Assembly: GCA_964566535.1 (NCBI GenBank) | Contig: CAZMIO010000001.1 | Span: 1 to 64,000, forward strand | Length of the DNA stretch: 64,000 nucleotides | Direction of reading: 5' to 3' | From: an uncultured Methanosarcinales archaeon | GTDB taxonomy: Archaea; Nanobdellota; Nanobdellia; Woesearchaeales; CAZOXR01 | Shown here: positions 822-47,701 of the stretch, piece after piece | How positions within the stretch are numbered: position 1 is the first letter of the stretch | Layout: every line of letters starts with the position of its first letter | Notes under the pieces: generated by a model | What the model was told of the DNA's origin: nothing | Database searches by the model: none | Seen by the model: only the letters and a program-made list of their open reading frames with translations | Program-made: the position numbers and the translations under genes

Positions 822-2072
822 CTACCCTTTTATTATTCCGTAACCAATTAATCTGAATCTATTAGAAATCATTCTTGAGATCGTAACTCTTGAATCTAGG
901 GCTGCGCAGACTGGAAGCTTAAGTCTGCACGAGATTATGTTTTTCTTTAGTTTTGTTATTATCCCTATTGTTGATGCTGCGTTTACATTTAGCATTAAAG
1001 ATTCATTCATTTTGATTGGATCAACGTCTAAGTCGTCTTTTAGGCCTACTACTCTCTTTAGTAATGTGACTTCTAAGTTTAGTTCGTGGCGGACATCCGG
1101 TAGTTTTCCTGATAAGCCTACAAGATTTCCAGTTAATTTATCTGACTTTACGATTGTAGGGTCTAACGAGGTTAAGAGTCCTATTGAGCCTCCAGGTGAT
1201 GCTTCTTCGACTGATAAACTTCCTGTTTTGATGTCAGTTATTTTTGTGTTTATTGATTTCCAAGTTTTTTGGTTTTTTTCAGTAACATCATAACCTGGTT
1301 TGATTTCTATATTGTCCCCTACTTTTAGTTTTCCTTGTATTAAGGTGCCACCTAGAACACCACCTACAATGCTTTTTATCAATGAACCTGGTTTGTTTAT
1401 GTCGAATGATCTTGCTATAAGCATGATTGGGTCTTTTGTTGAGTCCCTTTCTGGTGTGGGCATTGTCTTTTCTATCGTTTCTATTAATTCAGATATGCCT
1501 ACATTGTGTTGAGCCGAGATTGGTATGATTGGGGCCTTTTCAAATGAAGTTCCTTTTATGAATTCTTTAATTTGTTTATGGTTCTCTATTGCTTTTTCTT
1601 CGCTTAGTAAGTCAATTTTGTTTTGGACAATGATTATGTCTTTTACGCCCATTATCTCTAAAGCCATTAGATGCTCTCTTGTTTGTGGTTGAGGACATTC
1701 TTCGTTGGCTGCGATTAATAGTAGTGCGCCGTCCATAATTGTTGCTCCTGAAAGCATTGTTGCCATCAGACTTTCGTGGCCAGGAGCATCTACGAATGAA
1801 ACTTTTCTAATTATTTTTGGCTCTGCTTTACAGACAGGACATTCTTTTTTAGTTGTGTTGATTTTACATTTAGCACATCTTCTTAGAATTGAATCTGCAT
1901 AACCTAATCTTATTGTAATTCCTCTTTTGATTTCTTCAGAATGAGTATCTGCCCACTTTCCGGACAGGGTTTCTAAGAGTGTTGTTTTACCGTGGTCAAC
2001 ATGACCAATCATGCCTATATTTATGACAGGTTGAATATTTTCTTCCTTCTTTTTGGTTGTCTTTTTCTTCAT
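822..2072 (-). CDS. eif2g: Translation initiation factor aIF2 gamma
   Basis: GHVDHGKTT, RGITIRLGY, DAPGHE, QNKID, terminal RLIGYG. Confidence 0.97.
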   Translation of the reverse strand: MKKKTTKKKEENIQPVINIGMIGHVDHGKTTLLETLSGKWADTHSEEIKRGITIRLGYADSILRRCAKCKINTTKKECPVCKAEPKIIRKVSFVDAPGHESLMATMLSGATIMDGALLLIAANEECPQPQTREHLMALEIMGVKDIIIVQNKIDLLSEEKAIENHKQIKEFIKGTSFEKAPIIPISAQHNVGISELIETIEKTMPTPERDSTKDPIMLIARSFDINKPGSLIKSIVGGVLGGTLIQGKLKVGDNIEIKPGYDVTEKNQKTWKSINTKITDIKTGSLSVEEASPGGSIGLLTSLDPTIVKSDKLTGNLVGLSGKLPDVRHELNLEVTLLKRVVGLKDDLDVDPIKMNESLMLNVNAASTIGIITKLKKNIISCRLKLPVCAALDSRVTISRMISNRFRLIGYGIIKG

Positions 2073-2073
2073 A

Positions 2074-2598
2074 CTATTTTTTCTCTTCCTTCTTAGGTTC
2101 TTCCTTTGGTTTTTCGCTTTGAGAAGCTTTAGGCTTCTCTAACCCTTTCTCGTCTTTACTCGAAAGTTTAGGAGCGTCTTTCTTAGCTTCTTCCTTAGGT
2201 GCTTCTGCTCCTTCTTCTGCTTTTGCACTTAGGACGTCTGCTAGTTTTTTAGAACCTTCTTTTGTAGCTTTTAAGTTTATTTGAACGATAGAATCATTTA
2301 CTTTGTGACCGCAGACTGTTTTTCTTCTTTGAAGTTCTTTTCTTTTGTTTCTGAATCCAACTCCACCAGTCAGTTTAATTCTTTTCCTGACTCCTAGAAT
2401 TCCTCTTCTCATTGGGAATCCGCAGAAATCAGAACCTCCTGTAACTTGGAATTCGTAACCAGTTAAGTCGAAAAGTTCTCCTTTTACTGTTTGGCCTATG
2501 TTTAAGCCGATAAAAGGGTCTGCTTGCTGGTCTTTAACTTCCTTTTGGTATGTTTTACCTGTTTTTGGATCTGAAATATTTAGTTTGAAACTTGCCAT
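2074..2598 (-). CDS. rps6e: 30S ribosomal protein eS6 with charged C-terminal extension
   Basis: FKLNISDPKTG, TGGSD..GFPM, RRKTV.G motifs. Confidence 0.95.
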   Translation of the reverse strand: MASFKLNISDPKTGKTYQKEVKDQQADPFIGLNIGQTVKGELFDLTGYEFQVTGGSDFCGFPMRRGILGVRKRIKLTGGVGFRNKRKELQRRKTVCGHKVNDSIVQINLKATKEGSKKLADVLSAKAEEGAEAPKEEAKKDAPKLSSKDEKGLEKPKASQSEKPKEEPKKEEKK

Positions 2599-2651
2599 TT
2601 TTGTTATCCTCCGATTAAGTTGGGTTAGAGAAATTAAAATTCATTTAAAAA

Positions 2652-2786
2652 CTATTCGGTTTTTAAACTGTCGTAAGGACTTTGTACTGAGATCATCTTG
2701 GGGGATGCCATATGGACATACTGCATTGTTGTTTGTGGACTTCCAACCAAGAAAATAATTGATAAGATAATTAATATATCTTTCAT
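2652..2786 (-). CDS. Small ORF with signal-peptide-like N-terminus (44 aa), possibly a gene remnant
   Basis: Not in the ORF track; MKDILIILSIIFLVGS..., preceded by SD GAGGTGA (2791-2797). Confidence 0.45.
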   Translation of the reverse strand: MKDILIILSIIFLVGSPQTTMQYVHMASPKMISVQSPYDSLKTE

Positions 2787-2852
2787 AATATCACCTCATA
2801 GATAGGGTACAGAGAGATAAGGGTTTTTTAATGTTTCTATTTAGAATATAAC

Positions 2853-3101
2853 TTATTTATATATATTCTTTCTATGCCCTACTTTAACAACTAAAAGAAT
2901 AATCTTATCGTGTATTATATCAATGAAGAGTCTATAATCTCCAACTCGAAATCTGTATACAGGATCATCAACTAATTTGGTAAGATGCGATTCTGGCCTA
3001 ATTCTAATCCTTTTTAGTGCATTAATAATTCTAACTTGAACATCTTTAGGTAGTTTTTTAAGCTGTTTTTCAGCTTTAGGAGTAAAGATTACTTGGTACA
3101 T
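2853..3101 (-). CDS. relE: RelE/ParE-family toxin
   Basis: YRFRVGDYR and VGHRKNIY motifs. Confidence 0.9.
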   Translation of the reverse strand: MYQVIFTPKAEKQLKKLPKDVQVRIINALKRIRIRPESHLTKLVDDPVYRFRVGDYRLFIDIIHDKIILLVVKVGHRKNIYK

Positions 3102-3320
3102 TTACAGCCCAAGTCTCTTTTCAACTTCTTCAAGAGTAGAAAATTTTCCTTCTTTGAATTCTTTTCTAGATTCTTCTATATCTTTCTTAGTTTCTTCAGA
3201 TAATTCTTTAGTATCCTCTATTAAATCCCAAATAATCTCTTCATAGCTCTCTTTGTCATACATCTTTCTATTTTTTAGCTCATCTACTAATTTATTACTT
3301 ACTTGTATTGTTGTTGCCAT
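3102..3320 (-). CDS. Cognate antitoxin (RHH-like N-terminus)
   Basis: MATTIQVS...ESYEEII, acidic tail; directly upstream of the toxin. Confidence 0.8.
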   Translation of the reverse strand: MATTIQVSNKLVDELKNRKMYDKESYEEIIWDLIEDTKELSEETKKDIEESRKEFKEGKFSTLEEVEKRLGL

Positions 3321-3405
3321 AGTGAACTATAGTTGGCTATAGTATATAAATTTTTCTGTTTTTGAAAACGACATCTTTTTAAGGTATTTTATACTGCTTA
3401 ATTGA

Positions 3406-4896
3406 ATGGTAGATTCACAAACACAATTAGTTTCGTATGAAAATGTTCCTGATGGGCACTTTTCCTATAGGGGAGAGACTATTCCTGATTTAGCTATGCC
3501 TTGGAGAGGTATGACTCTTGGTGGCTTTCTTGCGACTCTTCCAGCAGATGATAGGGGCCATAGAGTTGATATAGATTTTGGTAGGGAGTATACAACTGAG
3601 GAAGTGGCAAAACTAGTTGGTAGACATTGGAGTAGAATTAGTCCTCGTATTACTCCTTATATTAATGCAGGGTTAGATGGTGTTAGAACAGAAGTAAGAA
3701 AAAAGTGGTTTACTGGACCAAGGGCTCTTAGCATGTATTTTATTACTGGAGCTTATGATAGTCCAGCTTCTTTAGTTGATGTAGTAGAAACACCTCCAAT
3801 TGCAGTTGCCCAAACAATACCTAGAATGGAAAGTGAAATGGTCTCTTTTGAAGATGCCCCCGAGGGTAAGTTTCGTTATGGTCTAGGACTTAGACATGTG
3901 ATTGATGATAGGAAAGTACAAGGCAAATATCTGTTAAGTGCTCTTATTGCGAGACTTGAACCAGATGCAAGTGAACATAGACCCCTTCAGGTATTGGATT
4001 ATACTCCTGGTTCAGAATATACTTTCAGAGATCTTGCTAAAATCCTTAACGTTCAACCACAAACTGTTAAAAAGCGTACATTGATGGAGCGTAAGAAAAC
4101 AGTTATTCCTGGTTTGACAGTTGGTGCTGGTAGTTTAGAAAGTCAATTAACTGGCTCTGCTGCAGCACAGGTTATAATGGCTTCCCCTAATCTTGTAACT
4201 CAATTAATGGATCCTGAAAATTTTGTTCTTTCAGAGATGCTTGGCTATCAAAGAGCATGGCTAGGAGAACGTGATGGAGGGGCATTCAAACTTCTATCTG
4301 ATTGGGTCCTTGAGACTTATTCTCAACTTGCTCAATCTTTTTTTAGCTCAAAACATGATTCAGATAATGCTTTGCAAGAGGTTCTAATTAAACTTTCAGA
4401 AAAAGACCTTCCGGATATGACTGACCATCAAATGTTTAGGTATGTTAGAGCGATGGTTAAGAATCAATCTTTAGATTTAATAACGGCTCGAAAAAGTCCC
4501 ACAGCCACTGGCTCAACTTTCCAAAAAGGTGCTTTTTGTATTGATAATGATGGGGTAACGGGTGATGATGGAGGGGCTGTTTCCGAAATTGGATGGGAAG
4601 CTTTTGCATATTCTACCGAACAGATTCAACATCTTGATGAGCATGATACTCTTGGACGTATGGGGACAGAGGAATGTACAACTGATCTTAGTGAAGTTGT
4701 TCCGAGGGTTTTATCTACTCTTAGACCAAAAGACCAAGAGATTGTTCAAGCTGTCTTTTATGGTGGGCTTTCTTATCGTAAAGCTGCAGCTCATCTTGGA
4801 TATGGATTGTCGGATATAAAAATAAGTATGCGTAGAGCGTTTGAGGTGTTAAGGTGGGGACCAATGAGAGAACTCTATGAGGAACAGTTAGACTGA
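3406..4896 (+). CDS. ECF sigma-70-like protein (regions 2 and 4) with two N-terminal HTH-containing repeats
   Basis: DNALQEVLIKL...FRYVRAMVKNQSLDLI (sigma2-like); LRPKDQEIVQAVFYGGLSYRKAAAHLG...IKISMRRAFEVLR (sigma4-like). Confidence 0.7.
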   Translation: MVDSQTQLVSYENVPDGHFSYRGETIPDLAMPWRGMTLGGFLATLPADDRGHRVDIDFGREYTTEEVAKLVGRHWSRISPRITPYINAGLDGVRTEVRKKWFTGPRALSMYFITGAYDSPASLVDVVETPPIAVAQTIPRMESEMVSFEDAPEGKFRYGLGLRHVIDDRKVQGKYLLSALIARLEPDASEHRPLQVLDYTPGSEYTFRDLAKILNVQPQTVKKRTLMERKKTVIPGLTVGAGSLESQLTGSAAAQVIMASPNLVTQLMDPENFVLSEMLGYQRAWLGERDGGAFKLLSDWVLETYSQLAQSFFSSKHDSDNALQEVLIKLSEKDLPDMTDHQMFRYVRAMVKNQSLDLITARKSPTATGSTFQKGAFCIDNDGVTGDDGGAVSEIGWEAFAYSTEQIQHLDEHDTLGRMGTEECTTDLSEVVPRVLSTLRPKDQEIVQAVFYGGLSYRKAAAHLGYGLSDIKISMRRAFEVLRWGPMRELYEEQLD

Positions 4897-5207
4897 TTCT
4901 CAATCAAAGATTTCAACGTAACTGGCTTACAACTATCGACTTTTCTTCCAAAGAAAGGATACTGTTTGCAAATCTTTGGTCTGTCAGAATAAATCTTGCA
5001 GACGTTCCTATCTCTTAAAAAAATACATTTTCCATTTACTTTTCTTAGAATATTGTCATTAATAGTTCCTATTTCTAATTTGTCTAAGAAGTAATCTTCA
5101 GAATAATTTTTCTTTATCCTTTTAATATCAGAATTATAAAGTTTAATTACATACTTTCTACAACACTGACCGCATCTTTCACATCTAAATGTTTTTTTAT
5201 TAAGCAT
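4875..5207 (-). CDS. YkgJ-family cysteine-cluster protein
   Basis: CERCGQCC...CIFL...CKIYSDRPKICKQYPF. Confidence 0.9.
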   Translation of the reverse strand: MLNKKTFRCERCGQCCRKYVIKLYNSDIKRIKKNYSEDYFLDKLEIGTINDNILRKVNGKCIFLRDRNVCKIYSDRPKICKQYPFFGRKVDSCKPVTLKSLIENQSNCSS

Positions 5208-6448
5208 TATTTTTTGGTTAATTTAATACTGATAATTCTTCTATCTTTGATTTCTTTGATGATTGCTTTATACTTTTTATCTAATTCTACTATATCTCCT
5301 TCCTGGGGGATCTTACCTTCTTTGTGTAGTACGAATCCGCCAAAGGTTTCGAAGCCCTTACCTTTGAATTGAGTCTTTAACTTTTCATTTACTTCATCAA
5401 CATCCGCCTTACCCATAATTAACCAGCTTTTTTTGCTTAATTTTTTGATGTTAGGCATTACTTTTTCTGTTTCATCCACTATCTCTCCAACTATCTCTTC
5501 TAAAACATCTTCTATTGTGACTAATCCTGAAACAATGCCATGTTCGTCAACAACAATTGCCATGTGTTCTTTTCTTTTCTGGAATTGTCTAAGTATGTTA
5601 TCAGTTTTAACTGTTTGTGGAATAAAGAAAGGTTTTCTCATAATCTTTGAAACAAGCAGTTCATTAAATCCTTTTTTCCCGATGTATTGGTAAATGTCTT
5701 TAACATTTAGAATACCTTTGATGTGGTCTCTTGTTTTTTCATAAATAGGAAATCTTGAGAAGGGTGTTTTTTTAATGAGTCCTAACACTTCTTTTACTTT
5801 TTTATCCACACTAATGCAAGTCATATCTGGCCTAGGAGTCATTATTTCCTTGACATTTATTTCATCGAACTTGAAAATATTGTGAATCATCTCTTTTTCA
5901 ATTTCTTTTATTGATCCTGCTTCTTCACCAGCTTTTACATAACTTTTGAGTTCATCTTCTGTTACAATTGTTTCTTTCTTCTTTATACCTAATATTTTGT
6001 TTAATAGCTGAACAAACCAATCCAATATTTTCATAAGGGGGAATAAGATTATACTTAAAATCCAGATTGGTCTTGCTACTAATAATGCAATAAATTCGGA
6101 ATGTTGTGTAGCAATTGATTTTGGAGAGATTTCCCCGAAAATTAATAGGAGTAAAGTGGTAATACCTGTTGCAATTCCAATAGCATTACTAAACCCTAGG
6201 TCAATTACTAACTTTGTGGTAATTGCAGCTGTGGCAACATTGACAACATTGTTTCCAATTAGAATCGTAATTAACATCCGATGAGTGTCTTCTTTAAGTT
6301 TGTACAGTATTTTAGCTCCCCTTTTCTTCTGTCCCAGAAGATGTTTGGCTTTAAGTTTATTAACTGAAGCTAATGCTGTTTCTGAGCCTGAAAAGAATGC
6401 TGACAAGACTAATAAAACTACAAGTGTATAAATTTCGTTTGGAATCAT
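5207..6448 (-). CDS. CNNM/hemolysin-family membrane protein (DUF21-CBS-CorC)
   Basis: SAFFSGSETA, GEISPK, VDEHG..SGLVTIEDVLEEIVGEI. Confidence 0.92.
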   Translation of the reverse strand: MIPNEIYTLVVLLVLSAFFSGSETALASVNKLKAKHLLGQKKRGAKILYKLKEDTHRMLITILIGNNVVNVATAAITTKLVIDLGFSNAIGIATGITTLLLLIFGEISPKSIATQHSEFIALLVARPIWILSIILFPLMKILDWFVQLLNKILGIKKKETIVTEDELKSYVKAGEEAGSIKEIEKEMIHNIFKFDEINVKEIMTPRPDMTCISVDKKVKEVLGLIKKTPFSRFPIYEKTRDHIKGILNVKDIYQYIGKKGFNELLVSKIMRKPFFIPQTVKTDNILRQFQKRKEHMAIVVDEHGIVSGLVTIEDVLEEIVGEIVDETEKVMPNIKKLSKKSWLIMGKADVDEVNEKLKTQFKGKGFETFGGFVLHKEGKIPQEGDIVELDKKYKAIIKEIKDRRIISIKLTKK

Positions 6449-31395: not shown

Positions 31396-32316
31396 TTATT
31401 TCTTTTTCTTGACTTTCTTAATATCTTTTTCAAGCTTTAGTTTGTCAAGTAGTTCTTTGTATCTGTTTCTGATTGTAACTTCAGTAACACCAGCAACATC
31501 TGCAACTTCTCTTTGAGTACGCTTTTCGCCATGTATTAAAGCTGATACGTACAAAGCAGCTGCTGCTATTCCAGTAGGGCCTCTACCAGAGGTTAATTCA
31601 GCTTTTTGAGCCTTTTCTAAGATTTCAATTGATTTTGATTGTGTTTCTGCACTTAGTTTTAGAGCTGATGCGAATCTTGCAATGTAATCGGCTGGATTGC
31701 TTGGCATTATTGTAATTCCTAGTTCTCTTGTAACGAATCTGTATGTTCTTCCAATCTCTTTCTTTTCGATGCTTGATGCTTCTGATAGTTCATCTAGTGT
31801 TCTTGGAACTTCGTGACGTCTGCAAGCGGCATATAATGCTCCTGCAACTACTGATTCCATACTTCTACCTCTTACAAGTCCCCTTTGGACTGCTAAAGTG
31901 TAGATTCTAGCTGCTTCTTCCTCTACTGATCTTGGTAATTTTAAGTATGAAGAGACTCTTTTTAGTTCTGCAAGTGCTAATTTTAGGTTTCTTTCAATAG
32001 CGGTTGAAATCCTGTACTGCCATTTTCTTAATCTGAAGAATTTATCTCTATTTTTACCGCCCATCTTAAATAAGTCGCCTTTTTGACCTACTTCTGTACC
32101 TAAACCTTGATCATATTGAGTATAAGTCATCGGAGCTCCAGTTCTACGCTTTTTGTCACTATCGTTAGCGTCAAACTCTCTCCATTCTTGCGAGAAGTCA
32201 ACCATCTTATCTTCTAGAACTAGACCACAGTCTTTACAAACTATCTCTCCTTTATCTCTATTCCAGGATAGATTTATGCCACTACACTCAGGACATTTTT
32301 TTATCATATCTGCCAT
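31396..32316 (-). CDS. tfb: Transcription initiation factor IIB
   Basis: CPEC..C..CG Zn ribbon, EWREF, GRGPTGIAAA, VTEVTIRNRYKEL. Confidence 0.98.
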   Translation of the reverse strand: MADMIKKCPECSGINLSWNRDKGEIVCKDCGLVLEDKMVDFSQEWREFDANDSDKKRRTGAPMTYTQYDQGLGTEVGQKGDLFKMGGKNRDKFFRLRKWQYRISTAIERNLKLALAELKRVSSYLKLPRSVEEEAARIYTLAVQRGLVRGRSMESVVAGALYAACRRHEVPRTLDELSEASSIEKKEIGRTYRFVTRELGITIMPSNPADYIARFASALKLSAETQSKSIEILEKAQKAELTSGRGPTGIAAAALYVSALIHGEKRTQREVADVAGVTEVTIRNRYKELLDKLKLEKDIKKVKKKK

Positions 32317-47617: not shown

Positions 47618-47701
47618 AGCCTTCGGCGAGAATTGAACTCGCGACCTATACCTGTTTGGAAGATATACCAAGGTATCGCTCTACCACTGAGCCACGAAGG
47701 C
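47618..47701 (-). tRNA. tRNA-Thr(GGU) with 12-nt intron (47654-47665)
   Basis: GCCTTCG/CGAAGGC, ATACC-TTGGTA[intron]A-GGTAT, TTGG/CCAA BHB helix. Confidence 0.93.

Follow-up and report, generated by a model that had tools for sequence, protein, structure and literature searches.

A divergent sigma-70 family gene joining an ECF-type core to a duplicated N-terminal half in a marine DPANN archaeon

Sigma-70 family genes (fam00359) have been described by Castelle et al. (2021) as particularly prevalent in Woesearchaeota; in the passages of that paper dealing with them, mis-binning was ruled out, anti-sigma factors were not found, and the mechanism was called unclear (PMC8204110). Genes similar to rpoS are reported on DPANN viruses and on a prophage in excerpts of PMC12647753. 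A sigma factor in an archaeon is already published, and is not new. Its role in archaea lacking a bacterial polymerase has been an open question since the 2021 finding in Woesearchaeota, and nothing on sigma function in archaea was found in the literature searched. Two papers on how sigma factors with extracytoplasmic function (ECF) are classified, PMC7826278 and PMC7671368, do not mention archaea in their excerpted sections. According to excerpts of the former, N-terminal extensions are rare and generally short in ECFs, and ECFs that lack an anti-sigma factor can be regulated by extensions of their own (PMC7826278). The gene described here is found in a stretch of 64,000 nucleotides, referred to as the window (positions 1 to 64,000 of contig CAZMIO010000001.1, assembly GCA_964566535.1). 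It encodes a protein of 496 amino acids (aa), in which a core of ECF type is preceded by a duplicated N-terminal half. The protein is a divergent member of the sigma-70 family, specified by an intact chromosomal gene of a marine DPANN archaeon of the Woesearchaeota/Nanoarchaeota type, and this identity, taken alone, is held with high confidence. The fused architecture and the near-orphan family are new.

As the sigma-70 genes known from Woesearchaeota and other DPANN archaea, the gene encodes a bacterial-type sigma factor in a DPANN chromosome and is not accompanied by an anti-sigma gene; the duplicated N-terminal extension, carrying helix-turn-helix (HTH)-like segments, is peculiar to the window protein. 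The sigma2-sigma4 build, and the lack of regions 1.1 and 3, are shared with the bacterial ECFs of group 4 (E. coli sigmaE, M. tuberculosis SigK, SigL and SigH, B. subtilis SigW). Unlike these, the window protein is found in an archaeon without a bacterial core polymerase, features a 280-residue N-terminal extension and a 61-residue linker, carries the D321N and W346Y changes and an altered recognition helix, and has no anti-sigma gene next to it. An extra domain is fused to the sigma core, and an anti-sigma gene is lacking, also in ECF41 and ECF42, where the domain is C-terminal, and in ECF121 (BldN) and ECF36 (SigC), where it is N-terminal (excerpts of PMC7826278); in the window protein, too, the domain could act on the core in cis. 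Compared to the extensions of these self-regulated ECFs, that of the window protein is N-terminal, about 280 residues long, duplicated and probably HTH-bearing, and matches no family model. HTH domains of the HTH_17, MerR and excisionase type give a weak Pfam match to the extension, and provide its nearest structural neighbours in the ESM Atlas, but all of these fall below threshold; in the two profile-profile comparisons it is on sigma region 4 that the repeats are, tentatively, placed.

The C-terminal 216 residues make up a complete ECF-type module, in which sigma2 and sigma4 are connected by an acidic, disordered linker of 61 residues. The open reading frame (ORF) on which a preliminary description of the locus had been based was found as described, with an ATG start and 496 codons before the stop, and every peptide quoted there is present in the translation. 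The same description had placed sigma2 and sigma4 in ECF order, and this is confirmed by two comparisons. NCBIfam model TIGR02937 (sigma70-ECF) scores 44.9 bits against a cut-off of 42.9, and it pairs aa 307-482 with model positions 16-161 of 165, so that the match takes in both halves, in the correct order. A profile of the two family members (see below) was aligned by hhalign to 18 ECF-like sigmas, 16 of which are proteins from the same archaeal order and two are sigma4-matching proteins retrieved by the exhaustive search reported below; aa 290-486 fall on positions 24-193 of 203, at 98.5% and E 2.8e-15. Several ECF subfamily models similarly put aa 293-366 on their sigma2 part, and PHROG 1740, annotated as RNA polymerase sigma factor, matches both family members (E 4.3e-6 and 7.4e-6). 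For sigma4, Pfam provides a Sigma70_r4 match at aa 435-483 with E 1.8e-10 (40.6 bits, cut-off 24.1). A Pfam search for Sigma70_r4_2 and Sigma70_r2 had been proposed as a check: the former is found (31.8 bits, cut-off 25.7), the latter does not match the window protein, and meets the homologous segment of its relative P0002 just below threshold (E 1.7e-4, 21.8 bits versus 24). No match to Sigma70_r3 or to region 1 models was obtained in the window protein at E values up to 10, and no model matches the N-terminal 280 residues as region 1.1.

The sigma2 fold, which the preliminary description had left to structure prediction, is indeed predicted. In the AlphaFold2 model of aa 281-496 the predicted local distance difference test (pLDDT) values are 94-97 over sigma2 and 93-97 over sigma4. 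The predicted sigma2 domain superposes on region 2 of E. coli sigmaE (2map) with Z 11.7 and a root mean square deviation (rmsd) of 2.3 A over 86 residues, the sigma4 domain on sigmaE region 4 bound to -35 DNA (2h27_D) with Z 10.4 and rmsd 2.1 A over 68 of 69 residues. Every match listed by Foldseek, at E values reaching about 0.05, is to a sigma factor, in most cases an ECF, and 19 have E <= 0.001. As the alignment fed to AlphaFold2 consisted mostly of ECF sigmas, the model confirms compatibility with the fold, and adds no independent proof. The linker has an isoelectric point (pI) of 4.05, is predicted to be disordered, shows pLDDT < 50 at aa 371-420, and is longer than in the aligned ECF sigmas.

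Sequence landmarks of sigma2 are YQRAWLGERDGGAF...NALQEVLIKL...FRYVRAMVKNQSLDLI, and the HTH of sigma4 is GLSYRKAAAHLGYGLSDIKISMRRAFEVLR. Departures from the ECF consensus are found in both domains. In sigma2 they are D321N in the AED motif, where 16 of the 18 aligned ECFs have D, and W346Y in the WL motif, where W is found in 14 of the 18; both changes are common to P0002, and fall in columns that we take to be those of core and -10 contact residues. R360T is a further departure, and Q324, E325, K329 and N353 are retained. In sigma4 the recognition helix reads SDIKIS in place of the consensus GTVKSR, and the region 4.2 scaffold G-x-S-Y...A..LG is retained.

Over the N-terminal 280 residues, a unit of about 135 residues is duplicated in tandem, as shown by sequence comparison. 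Residues 7-81 and 144-224 are 28% identical over 82 aa (E 2e-6), and their Smith-Waterman score of 71 compares with 26.7 +/- 4.4 in shuffled sequences, none of 3000 shuffles being as high. Repeat 1 features the N-terminal motif VSYENVPDGHFSY and the HTH-like segment EYTTEEVAKLVGRHWSRISPRI at aa 61-82, repeat 2 the motif VSFEDAPEGKFRY, the helix LLSALIARLEP and the HTH EYTFRDLAKILNVQPQTVKKR; the tail of repeat 2 (aa 245-280) runs into the stretch best conserved with P0002 (aa 245-290, 54%). A further match, of the window protein's repeat 1 to repeat 2 of P0002 (E 0.015), indicates that the duplication is real and predates the split of the two proteins. Of the duplicated, HTH-bearing N-terminus set out in the preliminary description, the duplication thus stands firmly; the HTH assignments are plausible, and not proven. 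A profile made of two sequences, the window protein's own repeats, was compared by hhalign to two independent sigma profiles, in each of which region 4 is its best match, namely the ECF set (71%, E 3.7e-5, 45 columns spanning the 4.1 helix and the 4.2 HTH) and 11 primary-like sigmas (64.6%, E 6.3e-5, 62 columns), and to an unrelated control profile (1.5%). Two ECF models have their best-scoring stretch in repeat 2, on their sigma4 part, and PRK12515 weakly aligns aa 178-231 to its positions 126-174 of 189; sub-threshold matches in the repeats are also those of Sigma70_r4_2 (E 0.12) and PRK12515 (E 0.15). The weak HTH_17 match covers aa 205-223. Repeat 1 scanned alone has no Pfam or NCBIfam match, and a feature search of the ESM Atlas gave no usable match. 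Each N-terminal unit tentatively carries an HTH most similar to sigma region 4, and the putative domain order would be sigma4-like, sigma4-like, sigma2, linker, sigma4.

With E <= 0.001 as the limit, an exhaustive HMMER pass over 1.84 billion representative proteins gave five matches, namely a fragment of the window protein, P0002, P0003, P0004 and P0005. P0002 (420 aa) is 42% identical over aa 15-356, and features the same two repeats, followed by sigma2. Identity varies along the protein, being 36% in repeat 1, 42% in repeat 2, 54% at aa 245-290, 36% in sigma2 and 25% in the linker. Conservation comes in blocks along 340 residues, and includes invariant motifs such as NALQE and MVKN. As repeats and sigma2 follow each other in the same order, and sigma2 is as conserved as repeat 1, the fusion is real. 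The other matches were rejected as family members: P0003 is a repetitive, surface-type protein of 1385 aa matching the low-complexity linker only, and P0004 and P0005 are ECF sigmas matching sigma4 only. No member besides the window protein and P0002 was found by word-indexed protein searches, nor any further one by locus scans of genome, viral and metagenome contigs and of IMG/VR, among 60 relatives, or in phage and plasmid records. The two-member profile found no relative in 400 other genomes of the order; a match in genome G124 turned out to be an arginyl-tRNA synthetase, and was discarded as spurious. The gene is present in single copy in the 1.45-Mb genome, which is made of 37 contigs.

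Table 1. Coordinates of the sigma-like gene, its domains, its surroundings and the other sigma-70 family genes of the same genome. Positions refer to the window, or to contigs of the genome (G000) where indicated.
Feature	Position	Strand	Basis or remarks
Whole gene, 496 aa plus stop, multi-domain sigma-70 family protein	3406..4896	+	ORF list, ATG start
Repeat 1, aa 1-143	3406..3834	+	Internal repeat; 36% identity with P0002
Repeat 2, aa 144-280	3835..4245	+	Internal repeat; repeat profile matches sigma region 4
Sigma2 domain, aa 281-366, regions 2.1-2.4	4246..4503	+	TIGR02937, hhalign, AlphaFold2, sigmaE superposition
Acidic Gly-rich linker, aa 367-427	4504..4686	+	Composition, AlphaFold2 pLDDT
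Sigma4 domain, aa 428-486, regions 4.1-4.2, plus short tail	4687..4893	+	Pfam, AlphaFold2, superposition
Divergent intergenic region, 85 nt	3321..3405	.	Read from sequence
DUF7557-like antitoxin	3102-3320	-	DUF7557 E 2.5e-5, 24 bits, just under cut-off 25
ParE/RelE-type toxin	2853-3101	-	Pfam ParE_toxin E 1.9e-12; PHROG RelE-like toxin E 7.5e-23
Lineage-specific insert, about 2.3 kb, between S6e and CxxCxxCC-domain genes	2599..4874	.	Comparison with G008 and L076
Sigma gene, 281 aa, regions 2, 3, 4	G000:C8:8310-9155	-	
Sigma gene, 232 aa, ECF-like	G000:C4:57093-57791	-	
Sigma gene, 316 aa, region 4	G000:C13:29574-30524	+	

The archaeal setting assumed in the preliminary description was verified. 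The chromosome is genuinely archaeal, and encodes one RNA polymerase, of the split archaeal type, which stays far below the cut-offs of the bacterial models (331 bits versus 963.5 for rpoC, 176 versus 801 for rpoB), along with the TATA-binding protein (TBP) and transcription factor B (TFB), the gene for the latter being located in the window at 31396-32316. Because polymerase, TBP and TFB are all of the archaeal kind, no anti-sigma gene is adjoining and two of the most conserved residues of sigma2 are changed in both family members, a DNA-binding regulator is the most likely function, and a classical promoter-specificity subunit of a bacterial polymerase is probably not what the gene encodes. 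The explanation favoured as a whole, to which we give about an even chance, is that of a sigma-derived, DNA-binding transcription regulator with a built-in N-terminal module. The protein would be a cytoplasmic regulator, binding DNA in a sequence-specific manner through sigma4 and the additional HTH units; it has no signal peptide and no hydrophobic or transmembrane segment, the highest 19-residue hydropathy being 0.92. The N-terminal HTH pair would add DNA contacts or, in the manner of the extensions of ECFs lacking an anti-sigma factor, gate the sigma core in cis, and the extension would probably take the place of an anti-sigma partner.

Several observations do not favour such a regulator, or fall short of it. 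Sigma2 and sigma4 are intact, and conservation of sigma2 in proteins only 42% identical suggests that this domain is still used for something; the retained signature residues Q324-E325 and N353 speak for a real sigma function, and the other sigmas of the order keep a region 2 that is close to the bacterial one. None of the HTH matches in the repeats reaches its family threshold (HTH_23 E 0.0099, HTH_38 0.088, HTH_17 0.1), and the likeness of the repeats to sigma4 comes from a two-sequence profile at 65-71%. The model of aa 1-285 has HTH_17/MerR clusters as ESM Atlas neighbours, with template modelling (TM) scores of 0.21-0.31 by query, under the bar, and a full-length AlphaFold2 model obtained with a two-sequence alignment, of mean pLDDT 40.4, was too poor for structure searching. 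The protein as a whole is acidic (pI 5.27), sigma4 being the sole basic domain (pI 8.31). The record of P0002, from a contig of 2100 nt, stops where sigma4 would begin. A regulator of this kind, repurposed from a sigma factor, is compatible with the data, its DNA-binding function being inferred.

The alternative that best survives, and is nonetheless unlikely, is a sigma-like initiation or specificity factor for the archaeal polymerase, in which sigma2 would dock on the clamp coiled-coil of RpoA' and the HTH units would read the promoter. In bacteria the clamp coiled-coil is the site used by sigma, in archaea that used by TFE and Spt5; it is present here, and 88-95% conserved in the order. Both sigma folds are complete, sigma2 is conserved in the two family members, and the mechanism is left open in the excerpts of PMC8204110. 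The distribution of sigma genes points in the same direction. Of 201 genomes of the order, 85 contain a match to TIGR02937 above the cut-off of the model (81 of 197 if the unpublished G182, G112, G132 and G121 are left out), closed single-contig genomes and near-consensus primary-like forms included, as do 10 of 14 genomes in a control set of well-known ones. Retention of sigma-70 genes across the order makes some polymerase-linked use plausible, and the near-bacterial region 2 of the other sigmas is a hint of such a role in these archaea. On the other side, the most conserved acidic residue of region 2.1/2.2 is replaced by N and the conserved W by Y in both family members, the archaeal coiled-coil is of the Rpb1 and not of the beta-prime type, and TBP and TFB, which are present, suffice for archaeal initiation (excerpts of PMC7289017). 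A complex of sigma2 (aa 281-375) and the RpoA' coiled-coil (aa 245-350), predicted without controls, scored 0.00, and counts neither way. A hybrid arrangement, in which the protein would select promoters beside TBP and TFB, with sigma2 on the RpoA' coiled-coil and three sigma4-type HTH units reading DNA, is improbable.

The best TIGR02937 matches of the order (loci L002-L005 and L008-L012) are proteins of 385-689 aa, in which a C-terminal part similar to primary sigmas is preceded by long N-terminal extensions unlike each other; region 2 of the C-terminal part departs little from the bacterial consensus (DLIQEGN.GL..AV.KF....G.KFSTYA.WWIRQ). To the primary-like sigmas sampled, nine complete and one partial, and to its three paralogues, the window protein shows no similarity by BLAST (best E 0.064). 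These paralogues, listed in Table 1, are each located amid archaeal housekeeping genes, and feature a host-like GC content at third codon positions (GC3) and a low content of lysine, isoleucine and asparagine (K+I+N). Tandem arrays of sigma genes are frequent in the order: four genes are found within 3.8 kb in G039 (C3:16405-20160), three in G192 (C6:9240-11698) and two in G077 (C31:12336-14439).

The gene described here is an extreme form of such sigmas, an ECF core placed behind two extra HTH units that are probably sigma4-derived; the form is conserved in two distant proteins, and is present in a globally distributed marine archaeon. Should the protein bind DNA alone, it would show how an ordinary regulator can arise from a sigma factor; should it bind the archaeal polymerase, the textbook split between sigma-based and TBP/TFB-based initiation would have to be changed. 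The near-consensus primary-like sigmas of the order are probably better first test objects, and this lowers the weight of the single locus.

The gene could also be the cargo of a mobile element or of a degraded provirus, having come in with the adjacent ParE pair and serving, or having once served, the element, for instance as its transcription regulator, with no host role; this is quite unlikely. The gene and the toxin-antitoxin pair lie in an insert of 2.3 kb at a spot that differs between relatives. In G008 the S6e and CxxC genes are 111 nt apart, and in L076, nearest among the named relatives, the gap is filled with unrelated genes over 2.36 kb (L076:3137-5398). These encode a receiver-domain-like protein of 130 aa, a 363-aa protein of unknown family and a membrane protein of 213 aa; the first two are poor in K, I and N, as judged by eye. 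The gap has the appearance of a hotspot of gene acquisition. Cargo would also fit the very narrow distribution of the gene, the presence of rpoS-like genes on DPANN viruses and a prophage (excerpts of PMC12647753), and a related antitoxin cassette (20 differences over 3187-3325), found at higher depth and with other flanks in the same marine metagenomes. Against it, no integrase or transposase was found beside the insert, a search for repeats over 2550-5000 gave no convincing terminal repeats or target duplication, the only pairs being short, AT-rich and chance-like, and no relative turned up in IMG/VR, phage or plasmid collections. The locus is moreover identical across runs of several studies, and codon usage is fully host-like. 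Total GC of the gene is 0.40, at the 93rd percentile of 1300 ORFs, and the flanks range from 0.27 to 0.33; GC3 is 0.223, at the 11th percentile of the same ORFs. The high total GC is due to the protein being poor in K, I and N, the content of which is at the 2.5th percentile. Recent transfer was considered as the cause of the raised GC, and ruled out by the low, host-like GC3, which indicates that the gene is neither a recent arrival nor a foreign fragment. Comparison with the relatives shows that the gene arrived in the lineage beside the ParE pair, at a variable spot, and then took the host codon usage.

A decaying relic of a sigma gene once acquired from bacteria, with its function lost, would fit the lack of a cognate polymerase in the genome, the altered consensus residues and the near-orphan family, and the 20 runs listed for the stretch are all DNA and none RNA. 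We regard this as improbable, since the 496-codon frame is open and free of frameshifts, both sigma domains are recognised at curated thresholds, block conservation with a 42%-identical relative extends over 340 residues, and GC3 is adapted to the host.

The preliminary description had offered, next to a repurposed regulator, an effector delivered to a bacterial partner and acting on the core RNA polymerase of the latter. No support was found for this, and it is very unlikely. The module is of bacterial type; in passages of PMC8204110, DPANN archaea are regarded as living in attachment to other cells, the known DPANN episymbionts being, however, described there as living on other archaea. The protein lacks, as said, a signal peptide and transmembrane segments, no secretion genes are found near the gene, and the two changed residues of sigma2 belong to the core-binding consensus.

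The genome is 91% complete, with an estimated contamination of 0.09%, and the gene is located 3.4 kb from the start of a contig of 331,861 nt. Neighbours on one side are the genes for RpoF/Rpb4, L21e, aIF2-gamma and S6e, on the other those for the CxxCxxCC protein, a CNNM/CBS transporter, an SPFH protein and enzymes of amino-acid biosynthesis and, beyond these, EF1-beta and Trm1. When aIF2-gamma is compared, the named genomes closest to this one are metagenome-assembled genomes that carry the labels Woesearchaeota, Nanoarchaeota or Nanoarchaeia, at 57-69% identity; the labels of some automated records are different. The stretch is present in 20 DNA runs from 15 studies, all marine and seawater metagenomes. 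Contigs from four runs, belonging to four other studies, show 0 differences and bridge the junctions of the gene (X8, 2000-3327 and 3302-4390; X17, 3281-3547; X9, 4226-5499); as DNA contigs free of differences, they give no signal of expression or selection. A bacterial fragment joined to an archaeal contig by assembly or binning, which closeness to the contig end and a total GC above that of the flanks might suggest, can practically be dismissed in view of these independent contigs, the archaeal genes on both sides, the host-like GC3 and the low contamination.

The gene is monocistronic; it diverges from the toxin-antitoxin pair and converges with the CxxC gene, and no anti-sigma gene or co-transcribed partner adjoins it. 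With PADLOC, neither the gene nor its neighbours matched a defence system. The intergenic region upstream contains two TATA-like boxes, TATATAAA at 3343-3350 and TTTTTAAGG at 3376-3384; because the region is AT-rich, they are putative promoter elements only. The heptamer CTATAGT is found twice, 10 nt apart (3327-3343), beside the antitoxin gene, and a palindrome (I7) falls in the 3319-3343 stretch. No Shine-Dalgarno sequence was found in this region, and no ECF-type -35/-10 autoregulatory promoter was seen by eye upstream of the gene. At the other end, the sigma-like and CxxCxxCC genes, on the + and - strand, respectively, overlap by 22 nt at their 3' ends (4875-4896), leaving no room for a terminator in between.

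Other features of window and genome are worth recording. A tRNA of 84 nt is encoded at 47618-47701 on the minus strand (Rfam, 62 bits); ARAGORN assigns it no amino acid, and gives its anticodon, at position 32, as an odd one of two letters. This may be an archaeal tRNA that carries an intron or is unusual in another way. Elsewhere in the genome, a gene for the small subunit of replication factor C, split by an intein that contains a LAGLIDADG domain (G000:C4:53240-55786, minus strand; L073:989-3535), is located two genes away from the ECF-like sigma gene, a gene for a Cas4-like nuclease lying in between. The 281-aa sigma gene adjoins a gene for S-adenosylmethionine synthetase featuring three Pfam S-AdoMet_synt domains (G000:C8:7018-8181, minus strand; L072:2783-3946). 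The enzyme is presumably of the bacterial/eukaryotic and not of the archaeal type, and its gene may be another acquired bacterial gene.

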